Positions 33,133 through 38,716 of a stretch of 64,000 nucleotides of DNA are shown here, piece by piece. Made by a program: the position numbers and the translations under genes. How positions within the stretch are numbered: position 1 is the stretch's first letter; each line of letters opens with the position of its first letter. Under the pieces are notes generated by a model that saw only the letters and a program-made list of their open reading frames with translations, ran no database searches and was not told the origin of the DNA. The DNA comes from Thermodesulfobacteriota bacterium. Its GTDB lineage: Bacteria; Desulfobacterota_D; UBA1144; Nemesobacterales; UBA2774. The stretch covers positions 2,048,001-2,112,000 of the forward strand of contig OZ244197.1 of assembly GCA_965216785.1 (NCBI GenBank). Reading direction: 5' to 3'.

Positions 33133-33226
33133 TGGCGGAGAGGGTGGGATTTGAACCCACGAAAGGGTATAAGCCCTTTACTCGCTTAGCAGGCGAGCGC
33201 CTTCGACCGTACTCGGCCACCTCTCC
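33133..33226 (-). tRNA. tRNA-Ser (anticodon GCT)
   Basis: GGAGAGG/CCTCTCC acceptor stem, CTCGC-CTGCTAA-GCGAG anticodon arm, long variable arm, GGTTCAAATCC, CCA. Confidence 0.97.
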
Positions 33227-33273: not shown

Positions 33274-33365
33274 AAAAAATCTAACTCGCCCAAAGATGCC
33301 GATGATGGGGGTTCCTTAGGAGGGTTAGTACACTTGTGTACTCACTTCCTTCGGGCGAGTTAGAT
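33274..33365 (-). ncRNA. Putative small RNA or large-loop terminator with C-rich loops
   Basis: 13-bp perfect stem ATCTAACTCGCCC/GGGCGAGTTAGAT followed by a U-run on -. Internal hairpin AGTACAC/GTGTACT. Loop contains ACCCTCC and ACCCCC. Confidence 0.45.
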
Positions 33366-33416: not shown

Positions 33417-33452
33417 AAAAGTCCCGGGCGCGGAGGGTCAGGCCGCGCCCGG
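33417..33452 (-). terminator. Intrinsic terminator of the RHH-hicAB operon
   Basis: 10-bp GC stem CCGGGCGCGG/CCGCGCCCGG followed by ACTTTT on -. Confidence 0.7.
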
Positions 33453-33497
33453 ATGTAGATGGGGGACAAATAGGAATGCTGTGTTTAGTAGTATTCA

Positions 33498-33920
33498 TCA
33501 TGATGCCTGTCTTATGTCGAAAAATGTCGAAGTACTATCCGGCTCACAATGTATTATGCCGTCCTGTCTGAGTCCTTCTAAGTGAAGGCGCACAGAGCTC
33601 AGCATCAGTTCCTTGGTCTCGTCGAGCGTGTCGCCTACGGCAACGCATCCCGGAAGGTCGGGGCAGTAAGCCGAGTAGCAATTCTGCGATTTTTCTACTG
33701 TAATCTCATAGTGCTCGCGCTCCGTAACGGCTTCTGTATCGAAGCAGTGTTTCAGAGAGTAATAAAGAGCGCCTTCCGGTAGTTCTTTATCCATCATACA
33801 GTTGAGCGTCACTCTTTGCTTTCTGCTCCTTAGTTTGAACTGTCGGTGGCTGCCGCATATCCTGACCAGGTACCACCCGTTATTCTCGACCAAAAACTTG
33901 ATTACCTCTCTAACTTTCAT
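33498..33920 (-). CDS. HicA toxin - HicB antitoxin in-frame fusion protein
   Basis: aa 1-60 MKVREVIK...GWYLVR.CGSHRQFK...RVT...ELP.G.L (HicA, catalytic His25). aa 70-140 YEITVEK...YSAYCPDLPGCVAVGDT...HLEGLRQDG (HicB). No stop between the two; GGAGAGG SD. Confidence 0.85.
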   Translation of the reverse strand: MKVREVIKFLVENNGWYLVRICGSHRQFKLRSRKQRVTLNCMMDKELPEGALYYSLKHCFDTEAVTEREHYEITVEKSQNCYSAYCPDLPGCVAVGDTLDETKELMLSSVRLHLEGLRQDGIIHCEPDSTSTFFDIRQAS

Positions 33921-33960
33921 TTACCATCCTCTCCGTATGTGTTTTCGTTGAAAGCCAGCT

Positions 33961-34182
33961 TTAATCGTCTTCTTGTTTGAACATTGCTACATTCTTAAAT
34001 TCCTCACCGGTCATTGCATTATCGAGATACTGTGTAAGAGCCTCCTCTATGATCTTGGATTGGCTAGTTCTCGATACGAAAGAGTACAACCTGAGCCTTT
34101 CGTAAAGCATTGAGGGTATGTAAAGAGACCCTCTGTGCATCTTCTGCGGGTTAGCCCGCTGCTGTATAGTTGCCGCTGTCAC
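33961..34182 (-). CDS. Ribbon-helix-helix (CopG/Arc-like) DNA-binding protein
   Basis: Beta-strand RGSLYIP, helix SMLYERLRLYS, helix SQSKIIEEALTQYL. Confidence 0.8.
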   Translation of the reverse strand: MTAATIQQRANPQKMHRGSLYIPSMLYERLRLYSFVSRTSQSKIIEEALTQYLDNAMTGEEFKNVAMFKQEDD

Positions 34183-34188
34183 AATCTA

Positions 34189-34217
34189 TTTATAGCATCA
34201 TTACGTAATGATGTCAA
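34189..34217 (-). promoter_or_regulatory. Sigma70 promoter containing an 18-bp palindromic operator; leaderless start
   Basis: On -: TTGACA-17-TATAAA with an extended TGn. Palindrome CATCATTACGTAATGATG at 34196-34213. GTG start 6 nt after the -10. Confidence 0.8.
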
Positions 34218-34583: not shown

Positions 34584-35888
34584 TTATGCTGTGCTTTTTC
34601 TTCTGACCGCGAGCAATCCAGCCATGCCCAGAATTACCGCTGCAGCGAACATACCCCACTGGCTCAGAGTCGGTATCGCGACCGGAAGACACCGGTATAA
34701 ATATACTTGTAGCTCATCGTTAGTAGTGTTCGGAAGTATGTTGCCCGTTGAGCTAAACGTAAGGAGCTCTCCCGTGGCGTCGAGCTTAGGGTTTTGATTA
34801 AAGCCTGTCGTAAGGTTAGTTATCTGCTCGAAAGTGTCATCGGCAATGTTAAAAGTAAATAACTGCTGTATTCCTAAAGGGTTTTGGCCCGTTAAATTGG
34901 CCGGCGATTGAAATACGATAATGTTGCCATTGGCGTTGACAAAGGGGTTTTGATTCTCGAGTCCTGTGAATGTGACCTGAGTAATAACACCTGTATCGTA
35001 AAAGTAAATCTCGCGGGCGTTTCCGGGGTTTCCGCCGTTAATATTTGAGGTGCTCTCAAATGAGATTATCGTGCCGGTTGAGTTAAGTGAAGGGTCGAAG
35101 CTGTTTCCGTTATCCTCCATCGTAATAGGAATGAATGTTGAAGAACCTATGTTGAAAGTATAAATCTCCTGGTTCTTGTTTGGGTTAGTGCCGTTTATGT
35201 CTGCAGAGCTTTCAAAGCCTATTATAGTACCGTTTAAGTTTATGAACGGATCTCTACTATTTTCCAAAGAATCGGTCACTTGTGTGATTATGCCGTTTGC
35301 AGGGGTTACGAAATATATTTCCGAGCTGAGGTCCCCGTTTCCGCCGTTTATGTCGGAGTCAGACTGAAAGGTGATAATGCCTCCGGCTCCGTCTATGGAT
35401 GGACTGAATATGTTCTTGCCGTCGTCTATATTGGTTAACTGCTGGAAGGTGCTCGTATTTACGTCAAAGAGTAAAAGTTGATTCTCGTTATTAGAGTTGC
35501 CGCCTGTAATGTCAGCTGTGGATAAAAACGCGATCTTCGAGCAATCGTTGTTAACATCAGCGGTATCGTTCTGACCGTCGATATTGCCTGGTGTAATTTG
35601 AGTGAGCTTCTTGCTCTCGATATCGTAATGAAATATTTGAAAATTGTTGTTAGGATTCTGACCTGTAAGATTTGAGCTTGATTCAAAAACAACACAGCTG
35701 CCGTCCGGGCTCAGCACGGGGTTTCTGCTAGTTTCTTCAGGATCGTTCGTTAAACGCTCGAAAATACATTTTTCCTGAGCCTCCACACTTGAGACTCCTA
35801 TCAAGACTGATATTACAATAAAGAAAATAGAGATTATGACTAAACTAAATGCTGGTTTTCTATATCTTGAATTATTGGCTCTGTCCAT
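34584..35888 (-). CDS. IPTL-CTERM surface protein with TolB-like beta-propeller repeats
   Basis: ~50-aa repeats (Q.T...S..P.I...G..I.F.S..NI.G.N...IY) and C-terminal AIPTLSQWG-TM-RRK. Start uncertain (35888 has an SD). Confidence 0.85.
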   Translation of the reverse strand: MDRANNSRYRKPAFSLVIISIFFIVISVLIGVSSVEAQEKCIFERLTNDPEETSRNPVLSPDGSCVVFESSSNLTGQNPNNNFQIFHYDIESKKLTQITPGNIDGQNDTADVNNDCSKIAFLSTADITGGNSNNENQLLLFDVNTSTFQQLTNIDDGKNIFSPSIDGAGGIITFQSDSDINGGNGDLSSEIYFVTPANGIITQVTDSLENSRDPFINLNGTIIGFESSADINGTNPNKNQEIYTFNIGSSTFIPITMEDNGNSFDPSLNSTGTIISFESTSNINGGNPGNAREIYFYDTGVITQVTFTGLENQNPFVNANGNIIVFQSPANLTGQNPLGIQQLFTFNIADDTFEQITNLTTGFNQNPKLDATGELLTFSSTGNILPNTTNDELQVYLYRCLPVAIPTLSQWGMFAAAVILGMAGLLAVRRKSTA

Positions 35889-35999
35889 CCACTTTCTCCC
35901 ATAAGCAATGTTGAATACAATATCGCACAATACTCAAGAATTATCAATACCTATAATTGGTAAGCTTAGTTCGTTAAAACTAGCAAGTCGGTCGCTTTT

Positions 36000-36512
36000 C
36001 TATATCCACCTTCGTGTGCGTTTTTTATAAGTGGTGTAATCAATGCCGAATTTGCCTTCCAGGTAGCGCTCCTCGCGCTCGATTACACCCTTTTGCATGA
36101 CTATTATGAACGGGAGAGTGAGGATTAATATCCATATGTTGCTTACGAGGACGGAAATGGCGATCATAAGGAGCGCCATCGAGAGATACATCGGGTTACG
36201 GGTGAAGCGGTATATGCCCTCGGTAACTACGCTCATGGAGGGTTTACGTACGTCTATGTTAGTGCCGGCTTTTCTCATCTGAAGCACAGCCAGGCTCATT
36301 ATGAGCACGGAATAAACGAGGAAAATCGCGCCCACTATAGTGCGCAGAGGGCCGTGGATAAAATGCATCGGGAAAAGATTGTGGAGAATTACGCCTACGC
36401 CTATAAATGCGATTAAAATTAGCGGAGGAAGGGCGATCACGCCCGGGTAGTCTTTCTGAGCCGGCGCTTTTTCCCCTGCGGGCCCGGTCTTTTTTTCTTG
36501 CTCGGCGCTCAC
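36000..36512 (-). CDS. Isoprenylcysteine carboxyl methyltransferase family protein
   Basis: TM helices, GIYRFTRNPMY, EERYLEGKFG..Y..YK...RRWI. Confidence 0.88.
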   Translation of the reverse strand: MSAEQEKKTGPAGEKAPAQKDYPGVIALPPLILIAFIGVGVILHNLFPMHFIHGPLRTIVGAIFLVYSVLIMSLAVLQMRKAGTNIDVRKPSMSVVTEGIYRFTRNPMYLSMALLMIAISVLVSNIWILILTLPFIIVMQKGVIEREERYLEGKFGIDYTTYKKRTRRWI

Positions 36513-37034
36513 TTAATATCTCTCTCCCGGAGGGTGGGGCGGTCTCATTCCCTCATGCGGCGCTCCTGGCGGTCCCGGGGGTCCCATCCCAGGAGGGCCG
36601 TGGCGTCGGTGTCTTCGCATTTCTTCAATAAATTCGGAGAGGGCTTCGCGCTCTTCCTGGCTTAAGTTCTGAGCAAGCTCTGACACAGTGGATGCCATAT
36701 CCATTGTGAGTACACCCAGGAGATCGTGGAGCTCACGGGCCTCACCTTCAAACCGCTCGGGATCGAAATTCTCCGCCGTGAGTGTTTCGATAAGCTCTCT
36801 ACGTGTTTTCTCCAGCTCTATTTTAGCGCCTCTGGTCTCGCGTCTCAGCTCTTTCATGGCGCCGAGTATCATCTCCTTCTTTTCTTCTGGGAGGCTGCCT
36901 AGGGTCTCTTCCATATCTGCCCTCATTTTTCCCCAGTGGGCGGCCCGCTTTGAGAAATGGCCGATGGTAAGCCCTATGAACAGGAAATTTAATATAATTG
37001 AGATTATGAATACTGCCTTTAGTCCCTTACTCAT
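36513..37034 (-). CDS. Periplasmic heavy-metal sensor (Spy/CpxP/ZraP-like), membrane-anchored
   Basis: SIILNFLFIG anchor, helical body, L..E.FDPE, LSQEER, His/Pro-rich tail. Confidence 0.8.
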   Translation of the reverse strand: MSKGLKAVFIISIILNFLFIGLTIGHFSKRAAHWGKMRADMEETLGSLPEEKKEMILGAMKELRRETRGAKIELEKTRRELIETLTAENFDPERFEGEARELHDLLGVLTMDMASTVSELAQNLSQEEREALSEFIEEMRRHRRHGPPGMGPPGPPGAPHEGMRPPHPPGERY

Positions 37035-37452
37035 AAAGCCCTCCGTCGTTGTAAATGAGCTCGGCAATTTGAACGCCCTCGGGCTCTGAAGCCAGCTCGT
37101 TTGCCGGGTATAGGTATCCGGCTACAATCCCCACTACTAATATAATCGGTAGAGCGATTGCGGGGCTCGGGATCGGGAAGGTCGAAAATAATTCTTTTAA
37201 TGAACCGAATATGGAATTTTGTTTCTCTTGACCTATGGCGCTTGATATAATTCTATCGCTTAGTCCGTGCGAGCTTTCTTCAAACTCTCTTTGCATGAGA
37301 GCGTCCTCAAGCGATTTTTCGGCTTCGAGCAACTCCGCTAGCTCTGTTGAAGCTCTGAGCGCGCGGTTGGCGTCTTGCGCTAAGGCTTGTGGCCAACTGT
37401 CGATATCGGCGCCGTAGACGCTTAGATATTCTAAAAACTTTTCCCTATCGAT
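37027..37452 (-). CDS. Anti-sigma factor, probably initiating at a non-canonical ATC
   Basis: The in-frame extension upstream of the listed TTG reads (I)DREKFLEYLSVYGADIDSWP, an anti-sigma-type N-terminus. GGAGGTG SD lies 7 nt before ATC. One TM helix. Confidence 0.7.
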   Translation of the reverse strand: MDREKFLEYLSVYGADIDSWPQALAQDANRALRASTELAELLEAEKSLEDALMQREFEESSHGLSDRIISSAIGQEKQNSIFGSLKELFSTFPIPSPAIALPIILVVGIVAGYLYPANELASEPEGVQIAELIYNDGGLYE

Positions 37453-38023
37453 TGTAAGCCACCTCCGTTTTTGGATTTGTGTTTAATTTTGCTCTTAAGC
37501 TGCCTTTAGCCCTCATAAGTAGTGATTCTAGTGCTTTTACGCTAATGTCCATTACTGACGCTGCCTCTTTTTGGCTCACTCCCTCGTAAAAACATAGCGC
37601 GAGCGCCGTCTGCTGGTTCTCGGGAAGCTCCCGTATTAGCGCTTCCACCTTGTCCTTAGCGCTCTTTAGCTCAGAAGCTTCTTCCTGCGAGCGCGCCTCG
37701 GATGTCAGCTCGTTAATATCGTTTGCTACAGTGTATTTTACTCTTTTTTTTACATCGAGACAGGCGTTTACTACCACCCTGTAGAACCACGTGGTGAACT
37801 TAACGTTCTTTGACGGGTCCCATTTCTCGGGCGAGTTCCACAACATAAGGAAAGAATCCTGCACTACGTCCTCGGCTCCTTCACGCTCTGAGAGCATGCG
37901 GTAAGAAAGAGCGTAGTACCTTTCTGTGTGGCGCCTTACTATTTCTGAGTACGCATCGCCGTTCTTTTCCATCACAAGCTTCATTAGTTCCTCGTCCGTA
38001 AGGTCTTTTGTGTCTTTTGCCAT
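37445..38023 (-). CDS. ECF sigma-70 family RNA polymerase sigma factor
   Basis: Region 2 AEDVVQDSF...KFTTWFYRVVVNACLD; region 4 LPENQQTALAL...SQKEAA...KALESLLMRAK. Confidence 0.93.
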   Translation of the reverse strand: MAKDTKDLTDEELMKLVMEKNGDAYSEIVRRHTERYYALSYRMLSEREGAEDVVQDSFLMLWNSPEKWDPSKNVKFTTWFYRVVVNACLDVKKRVKYTVANDINELTSEARSQEEASELKSAKDKVEALIRELPENQQTALALCFYEGVSQKEAASVMDISVKALESLLMRAKGSLRAKLNTNPKTEVAYNR

Positions 38024-38029
38024 GTTTCC

Positions 38030-38171
38030 ATTTTATCCTGCCCCGGCATCGCACTAAAACGCTCGCCTCCGTCCCCATATTTTATTCTGCCCCGGTATTG
38101 CCCGCTTATTTTTTATGCCTGCTCTCACTTACACACTATGTTCGCTCGCGGCCCCCAGCCTCCGTCCCCAA
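38030..38171. repeat. Modular REP-like repeat, copy 3
   Basis: CCTGCCCCGGCATCGC...GCTCGCCTCCGTCCCC and CTGCTCTCACT.ACACACTATGTTCGCTCGCGGCCCCCAGCC modules. Confidence 0.85.
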
Positions 38172-38254
38172 AATAATAACATGTTAAGCATAATAAATAC
38201 GGAAGGGAGAGAGTTTAATCCCTCCCTCCCGCGAGAATGGAGGAGTGTAGGACG

Positions 38255-38716
38255 TTATTCGCTATCCGTGTTTCTGTCTTTCCCGAACCTTCCGTGCGGT
38301 CCGCCGGGTCCCTTGGGGCCCATCTGCGCGAGCACTTCCCTTTCTTCCTGTGTCAGCTCGGGCGCGAGCTTAGCCACGGCGTCCGTGAACGTGCTGAAAC
38401 GCTGGGCCATGAGAGTCTCTAGCTTCTCGGCATTGGCATTGAAAGCCTCGGCATCAAAAGTATCTGCCGTGAGGGCCTGCCTCATCGCTTCTCTAGTTTC
38501 CTTAACCTCTTCCCTGAGCCCTTCGTTCTGCTCTCTTACTTCCTTCATGGTCGAGAGTATCAGAGTCTGCGTATCGGGCGAGAGCTCCATAAGCGCTTCC
38601 ATGTTGGCCCTGCCGTGCCTTCCGTGTCCGCCGTGTCCCCAGTCGCCCGCGTAGGCTGCTATGGATGTGGTAAGTCCGATTCCGAGAATCGCCGCTGTCT
38701 TAATGTATTTGTTCAT
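38255..38716 (-). CDS. Periplasmic heavy-metal sensor (Spy/CpxP/ZraP-like), secreted
   Basis: Signal peptide, His-rich N-terminus, ALTADTFD, LTQEER. GGAGG SD. Confidence 0.82.
   Translation of the reverse strand: MNKYIKTAAILGIGLTTSIAAYAGDWGHGGHGRHGRANMEALMELSPDTQTLILSTMKEVREQNEGLREEVKETREAMRQALTADTFDAEAFNANAEKLETLMAQRFSTFTDAVAKLAPELTQEEREVLAQMGPKGPGGPHGRFGKDRNTDSE

Follow-up and report, generated by a model that had tools for sequence, protein, structure and literature searches.

We report that the stretch of DNA analysed here (64,000 nucleotides, hereafter the window) carries on its minus strand a small module in which a HicA toxin and a short HicB antitoxin are joined in a single chain, preceded by a separate gene for an RHH protein, and that this module is shared across one family of Dadabacteria. 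Our preferred reading, to which we give a probability of roughly 0.45, is that a Class 1 hicAB pair has been fused into one auto-inhibited RNase that would be released by a host-stress trigger, either thiol or metal chemistry or proteolysis. Whether chromosomal toxin-antitoxin (TA) modules are true host regulators or selfish or anti-phage elements has been argued over for a long time. A module that seven genera have kept by vertical descent, and whose toxin domain is roughly on a par with RecA in conservation in three of these, bears on that argument, and suggests that a selfish toxin module became a stress switch that cuts RNA and is likely to be self-blocked.

The fusion ORF (33498-33920, minus strand) encodes 140 aa, seven of them cysteines. 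Its HicA half (aa 1-60; 33741-33920, minus strand), with a dsRBD-like RNase fold, holds G23 and H25 as well as C41 and M43, and matches the Pfam model HicA_toxin at aa 4-53 (37.4 bits, cut-off 27). An acidic linker (aa 61-70; 33711-33740, minus strand), in which aa 61-69 read DTEAVTERE, occupies what would formerly have been a stop and intergenic region. It leads into the short HicB half (aa 71-140; 33498-33710, minus strand), a partial RNase H fold that includes C81, ends in QAS and matches HicB_lk_antitox (PF15919) at aa 71-126 with 35.2 bits, above the cut-off. This match covers model positions 1-57 of 123, the part of the model for the DNA-binding domain (DBD) being missing; the chain stops about 14 aa past it, and the C-terminal RHH or HTH domain is absent. 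The RHH protein is encoded by a 73-aa ORF of its own (33961-34182, minus strand), 5' of the fusion gene on the same strand, with an RHH_1 match of 21.6 bits that lies just above the cut-off of 20.5. The preliminary description, made from the letters of the window, had given this same anatomy (the 140-aa fusion with seven cysteines and its linker, a GSH motif with His25 intact, a HicB without DBD and a separate RHH gene in the lead), and all of it stands, with H25 present in 42/42 sequences. In the genome to which the window belongs (G000, 3.1 Mb) a profile search found the fusion to be the sole HicA and the sole HicB match. No NCBIfam family covers the fusion protein, and in Rfam nothing beyond a tRNA reached the gathering score.

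Structure prediction agrees with this domain assignment. With a deeper alignment of 46 rows, which took in sporadic fusions from other lineages, five AlphaFold models reached pLDDT 83-85 (best pTM 0.81) and showed both expected folds; with 26 rows, pLDDT 80 was reached by one of five models. In the first model, aa 1-61 resemble the solved HicA 6g26_E (Z 5.8, rmsd 1.9 over 59 aa) and aa 69-140 the solved short HicBs 1wv8_A (Z 5.4) and 6g1c_V (Z 4.9), these Z values being middling. Foldseek returned no match in the PDB at E <= 0.001, its top rows nonetheless being HicA and HicB. A predicted complex of two fusion and two RHH chains scored 0.25, against a mark of 0.32, and we let it count neither for nor against an interaction.

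A sequencing or assembly artefact can be ruled out, because contigs from three of the four sequencing runs (X5, X7 and X8) bridge the fusion junction with no indel and no stop, and because the junction is uninterrupted in each of the 22 family genomes that gave a fusion match, one of these sequences ending with its contig at aa 109. The earlier statement that the ORF contains neither a stop nor an in-frame internal start has to be divided. The first part holds, the junction being free of stops in 42/42 fusion coding sequences, and the second does not, since M42, M43 and M106 are in frame, none of them in the linker. Between residue 56 and Y71 an NTG codon occurs in one of the 42 sequences, and the other 41 have no start codon in the linker. 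We considered a HicB-only product made from an internal start and rejected it: M43 has no SD in 42/42 sequences (mean anti-SD pairing -1.25 kcal/mol, vs -6.7 kcal/mol at the true start of the fusion), and M106 lies too far in for a HicB fold. As M43 does not serve as a start, its invariance (42/42) likely reflects constraint at the protein level.

The preliminary description had allowed that the fusion might be a singleton, and this is not the case. Among 120 genomes of the phylum a stop-free fusion was found in 22, all within the window's Dadabacteria family (22 of 33 genomes, seven genera) and none among the other 87; the RHH gene occurs in exactly the same 22, and 42 non-redundant fusion sequences were assembled. 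A protein search gave 30 matches, 25 of them full-length at 61-93% identity, and the few taxon names attached to these were Dadabacteria or Thermodesulfobacteriota; among named genome records the nearest is 'Candidatus Dadabacteria bacterium UBA2774' (96%). When metagenomes were scanned for the 22-bp promoter-operator described below, 48 loci were recovered, of which 36 carry the RHH gene, five are too short to read and seven are unrelated. A fusion start follows in 34 of the 36, and the other two end at a contig edge.

Within the family, the module is present in all 21 genomes in which tRNA-Ser(GCT) is assembled (the isoacceptor in G079, G090 and G093 being judged from 92-93% identity and not from the anticodon). 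In the window this tRNA gene lies at 33133-33226 on the minus strand (ARAGORN); we treat it as context, its membership in the system being putative at most. It stands within about 1.5 kb of the fusion in 17/22 loci and is unlinked in G079 and G090. Where the module is missing, in 11 family genomes, no match at the level of tRNA-Ser(GCT) was obtained either, the best matches being GGA or CGA isoacceptors or nothing; the flanking gene is missing from ten of these genomes, and in the eleventh the contig ends 265 bases past it. Since the tRNA and the flanking gene are missing alongside, these absences are best read as assembly gaps. This region does drop out of assemblies more than usual, recA being missing from 3/33 family assemblies and the tRNA-Ser(GCT)/module region from 11/33. 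In G078 the region is split over two contigs. The DNA beyond tRNA-Ser(GCT) varies in length among loci, and an insertion hotspot is suggested at this tRNA.

Selection on the module has been strong. Pooled Nei-Gojobori dN/dS, calculated over 109 non-independent pairs from the 42 coding sequences that were left once 50 had been made non-redundant at 98% identity, was 0.02 for HicA, 0.13 for the linker, 0.05 for the HicB core (aa 71-122), 0.13 for the tail and 0.08 for RHH. Such values, far below 1 and lowest in the HicA half, rule out decay, as does the persistence of fusion, RHH gene and operator in 22/33 family genomes; the view that the locus is not decaying was thus well founded. For the 20 genomes having both loci, genera g1, g2, g4 and g6 each form a clade in the recA tree and in the module tree, and pairwise identities of recA and module are correlated (Spearman 0.76, over pairs that are not independent). 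The deep branches of the module tree are weak, with five of 17 splits in common with recA and a single split at 95% support or more. Identity of the HicA half is 92% between g1 and g2 and 97% between g2 and g6, where RecA gives 86% and 89%; it falls to 45-80% against g3, g4 and g5. The best reading of these sequence comparisons is that the module is vertically inherited, core-like and fixed in one Dadabacteria family.

In trees with split Class 1 pairs, the two halves of the fusion behave alike: each is monophyletic (FastTree support 0.98 and 0.84), with the split pair of the family genome G070 weakly the nearest. Because each half is one clade nested in Class 1 hicAB without DBD, the fusion arose once from such a pair. 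The locus had been called rearranged, in the sense that the RHH domain was cut off HicB, and here the comparison points the other way. The nearest Class 1 pairs already have no DBD, and relatives of the RHH protein were found neither near split pairs (none in 11,435 ORFs of 83 split-pair loci) nor as part of a longer protein among 8,000 candidates, the latter being weak evidence. The RHH gene was therefore probably recruited rather than cut from HicB.

The control region of the operon is compact. A -35 hexamer TTGACA (34212-34217, minus strand), identical at 22/22 genome loci, and a -10 hexamer (34189-34194, minus strand), which reads TATAAA in the window and is TATAAA-like across loci, are separated by 17 bp, and the RHH start codon follows 6 nt after the latter in the window and 6-9 nt after it across loci, so that the RHH mRNA is predicted to be leaderless. 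The spacer is filled by a perfect 18-bp palindrome (34196-34213), the predicted RHH operator, which is unchanged at 22/22 loci in otherwise variable flanking DNA and whose exact form occurs in the same 22 genomes as the module. A consensus scanner called neither the promoter nor the terminator of the operon, probably because the last base of the -10 is not T and the terminator loop has 9 nt. The RHH ORF matches RHH clusters of the Atlas at a score of 0.94, its recognition strand MHRGSLYIP is invariant in 19/19 sequences, in step with the unchanged palindrome, and it bears a conserved C-terminal tail, missing in G079. An RHH protein with a palindromic operator in its own promoter has the arrangement of an autorepressor, and we infer binding and repression from this layout. 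G000 contains one exact copy of the palindrome and none at 1-3 mismatches, which points to local control; a wider RHH regulon was considered and, for this genome, rejected, the six sites at four mismatches being fewer than the mean of the shuffled control. In G079, the most divergent member, a second exact operator copy lies directly ahead of the fusion gene, which ties the repressor to the fusion and not to itself alone. The G079 locus (L199, 8150-8430) encodes a tail-less RHH of 56 aa, its second operator goes with a weaker -35 (TTTACA), its linker is 4 aa shorter and it has no linked tRNA.

Ahead of the fusion start, the SD-like motif GAGGATGG (33924-33931, minus strand) is retained at 21/22 loci in an otherwise variable intergenic region; it contains an upstream ATG whose frame varies, and in G000 it stands ahead of just 3 of 1,819 long ORFs. 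The motif may have a role beyond that of an SD, such as translational control. Past the fusion stop, a GC-rich hairpin with a U tract (about 33417-33454, minus strand) is a likely terminator: the 90 nt that follow the stop have a fold energy of -23.3 kcal/mol, and other genera have different hairpins in the same place. Pairing of the fusion SD region with the 3' end of tRNA-Ser (inverted repeat I1) was dismissed as purine-rich chance, being strong in some loci only, at -8 to -22 kcal/mol as calculated without a shuffle control. In the seven unrelated metagenome loci (L155, L156, L162 at 2001-2022 on the minus strand, L175, L176, L177 and L188), the 22-bp TTGACA-palindrome precedes an operon for a MerR-family regulator and then a VIT/vWA protein, and represents either a convergent operator or chance on a -35 box.

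Fused HicA and HicB proteins as such have been described. A 2024 survey by Gerdes distinguishes 14 HicA contexts, among them the fused classes 11 (A-B-DBD), 12 and 13 (both B-A), reports that none of the fused classes has been experimentally tested, and leaves open how Class 1 operons without DBD are regulated (PMC10865869). To call the locus an undescribed system was therefore too strong. Our locus shares with Class 1 hicAB the A-then-B order, the domain sizes and the small HicB without DBD (PMC10865869), and the split pairs among which its halves are nested are about 40% identical to it. Class 1, however, consists of two genes in a bicistronic and patchily distributed arrangement, whereas the fusion is one family-fixed chain with a dedicated upstream RHH gene, an operator and invariant new Cys and Met residues. 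With classes 11-13 it shares HicA and HicB in one polypeptide, and with it the need for a trigger (PMC10865869). Class 11 likewise has HicA at the N-terminus but is monocistronic with a C-terminal RHH or HTH, where our RHH is a separate upstream gene, and the monocistronic classes 12 and 13, the former with a small HicB, have the opposite domain order. Within the sections of the survey used here, no class combines an A-B fusion that lacks a DBD with a separate repressor (PMC10865869), and the family motif HRQFKLR is absent from its Table S1, whose three Dadabacteria rows belong to class 2 and class 4. Our literature search, whose scope stopped short of subscription papers and bioRxiv supplements, found no description of the locus. 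The three-gene TA operons omega-epsilon-zeta and PaaR2-PaaA2-ParE2 also begin with a gene for a separate DNA-binding repressor, followed by separate toxin and antitoxin; the locus resembles them in that first gene and differs in that toxin and antitoxin are fused and that the toxin is HicA. Judged from its sequence, it retains the HicA fold, the Gly-x-His turn and the partial-RNase-H HicB fold of HicAB type II TA systems and departs from their two-gene layout.

Sporadic A-B(short) fusions do occur in other phyla, in 2/79 split-pair loci and more elsewhere. Among the ones inspected, many either retain a Met ahead of HicB or show a scrambled helix 2; seven of nine looked up fall in clusters of 1-3 members. 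The ESM Atlas holds clusters of 72-170 proteins of 125-140 aa with both Pfams (score 0.89, a lead only). The bare architecture is thus not unique, and what distinguishes the present case is family-wide fixation, the dedicated RHH gene and operator, and the gained Cys and Met residues. Independent in-frame read-through fusions of HicA and HicB that keep the HicB Met were seen in an Anaerolineaceae locus (L064, 8001-8405) and in a gammaproteobacterial MAG (L100, 1660-2070).

G23, H25, R26, Q27, F28 and K29 are invariant in 42/42 fusion sequences, and G23 and H25 align to Gly22 and His24 of the HicA structure 4c26, both of which are needed for toxicity of a characterised HicA (PMC3969222). In solved complexes HicB blocks or buries the catalytic His of HicA (PMC11594946), so conservation of His25 could also be structural. 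Set against 67 split HicA and 78 split HicB sequences, the fusion has five residues that never vary within it and that less than 10% of split relatives share (L30, C41, M43, S78 and C81), two being Cys and one Met. C41 and C81 occur in 42/42 fusions; in split relatives the first column is G in 97% and the second S, N or G, and the background of Cys in long ORFs of G000 is 0.8% of residues. C41 aligns to HicA position 40, spatially near the catalytic His (PMC3969222), while C22 (36/42) and C24 (16/42) flank the catalytic turn, with neither present in 3/42. The candidate role for cysteines put forward in the preliminary description gains support from the fusion-specific C41 and C81. The HicA half is also more basic than its split relatives (+7.7 vs +5.6). 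In the HicB half, E115 (41/42) is a candidate His-masking Glu by comparison with the HicB contacts of B. pseudomallei HicAB, an assignment that we do not use as support.

The C-terminus is likewise conserved: the fusion ends in -AS in 41/42 sequences, against a background of 7/1,718 long ORFs, and split HicBs end in -AA in 19/73, resembling the host tmRNA tag. A DAS ending acts as a weak degron of the ssrA type (PMC7505660), and by analogy the -AS end could be a weak protease signal, which we offer as a lead only. The adaptor SspB was not found in G000 (92% complete).

Taken together, our preferred reading of a host-triggered, auto-inhibited RNase would run as follows. An RHH dimer would bind the palindrome between -35 and -10 and limit both its own leaderless transcript and the fusion gene. 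The tethered HicB half would cover His25 in cis, as the solved HicAB complexes and the compact AlphaFold model lead one to expect. Because toxin and antitoxin are a single chain and no free antitoxin is possible, differential synthesis cannot free the toxin and release must be post-translational. The trigger is the least certain step: it would most likely be thiol oxidation or metal binding at C41, M43 and C81 together with C22 and H25, or alternatively proteolysis from the conserved -AS end. The effect, rather than addiction, would be that RNA is cleaved reversibly and translation slows. A precedent in working, and not in fold, which is unrelated, is FhepTA, a fused MNT-HEPN RNase whose activity is controlled by redox state and by proteolysis, the former through two cysteines unique to the fused form (PMC13000451); against it can be set the two cysteines gained here, of which C41 aligns beside the catalytic His. 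In its most specific form, held tentatively and judged unlikely as a whole, our proposal is of a formerly mobile HicAB module, since domesticated as a family-core RNase, in which a Cys/Met/His site (C22, H25, C41, M43 and C81) gates the lid by thiol redox or by a soft metal, Cu(I) or Zn for instance. If true, a TA pair would have become a brake on translation under chemical gating, with the recruited RHH protein as its homeostat. The locus in any event offers one answer to how Class 1 systems without DBD may be regulated, by a recruited RHH, and a trigger hypothesis in its two gained cysteines; the module is small (140 and 73 aa and an 18-bp operator) and so testable in E. coli.

An alternative that we regard as unlikely, though worth weighing, is that the HicA half is silent or permanently masked, and that the protein serves a housekeeping role as a non-toxic RNA-binding regulator or as a thiol- or metal-sensing partner of RHH. 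Several positions that are 84-97% conserved in split HicA are replaced in the fusion (H30L, G35S, G41C, T51A, S54Y/H), so that catalysis could have been lost or altered; in HicAB complexes the active-site His lies at the interface; near-RecA conservation and core-like presence are unusual among toxins; and the conserved C-terminal tail of RHH could bind a partner. Against silence, the G-x-H-R-Q-F-K turn and the basic patch are retained in 42/42 sequences or nearly so. Co-regulation would have no wider regulon to serve, the operator being single-copy in G000, and a role as RHH partner sits poorly with the missing RHH tail in G079.

Gerdes proposed that the fused classes 11-13 act as CapRel-like phage sensors (PMC10865869), and applied here this would have a phage protein bind the HicB half or the linker, unmask His25 and bring about abortive infection. 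The anatomy of a fused TA that needs a post-translational trigger fits such a role, as does the tRNA gene adjoining the module in 17/22 loci, and CapRel SJ46 is indeed a single-chain auto-inhibited TA (PMC10865869, PMC13000451). CapRel SJ46, however, is a tRNA-pyrophosphorylating toxin triggered by a phage protein, whereas the HicA-HicB locus is conserved, core-like and, being in every family genome in which the linked tRNA is assembled, not patchy. No hypervariable sensor segment is apparent, dN/dS being 0.02-0.13 throughout. PADLOC gave no defence match for seven proteins at the locus. No family member was found on viral contigs in IMG/VR (four matches at 51% identity or less, the one inspected being a split pair) or on plasmids (52 records, all below 60%). 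The neighbours in the four loci examined are housekeeping or stress genes, with products that include a haem-oxygenase-like protein (below cut-off), ICMT/PEMT, two Metal_resist proteins with an ECF sigma factor, and an FMN reductase. With its vertical inheritance, this neighbourhood and a conservation close to that of RecA, the locus looks more like a domesticated stress switch than a phage sensor, and phage sensing, which the preliminary description had listed among the triggers, is for the same reasons of vertical inheritance and very slow evolution less favoured and in our view quite unlikely. Improbable, finally, is an anti-addiction decoy or neutralised relic, a toxin locked off that persists as an antitoxin to Class 1 HicA arriving on mobile DNA. 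Some family genomes do hold split Class 1 hicAB pairs (G070, G073, G077 and G090 among them) and accidental A-B fusions arise often elsewhere, but selection is stronger on the HicA half than on the HicB half, the reverse of what a decoy needs, a HicB occupied in cis makes a poor antitoxin in trans, and G000 has no other HicA or HicB.

Several features around the module deserve mention in their own right. Upstream of the module, at 36000-38716 of the window, a conserved cluster encodes an ECF sigma factor, a small membrane protein, two Metal_resist proteins (PF13801) and ICMT/PEMT; several genera keep it in synteny with the module. In G000, the ICMT gene and the RHH gene are separated by a gene (34584-35930) for a PD40/TolB-like propeller protein that bears an IPTL-CTERM sorting signal. 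This gene lies in a stretch of lower GC content (0.41) and is missing from the corresponding position of L033, a locus of the same genus, which points to a recent insertion or to loss in the relative. Between the fusion terminator and the promoter of tRNA-Ser, at 33279-33365, there is a 17-bp inverted repeat whose arms are 94% complementary and 53 nt apart.
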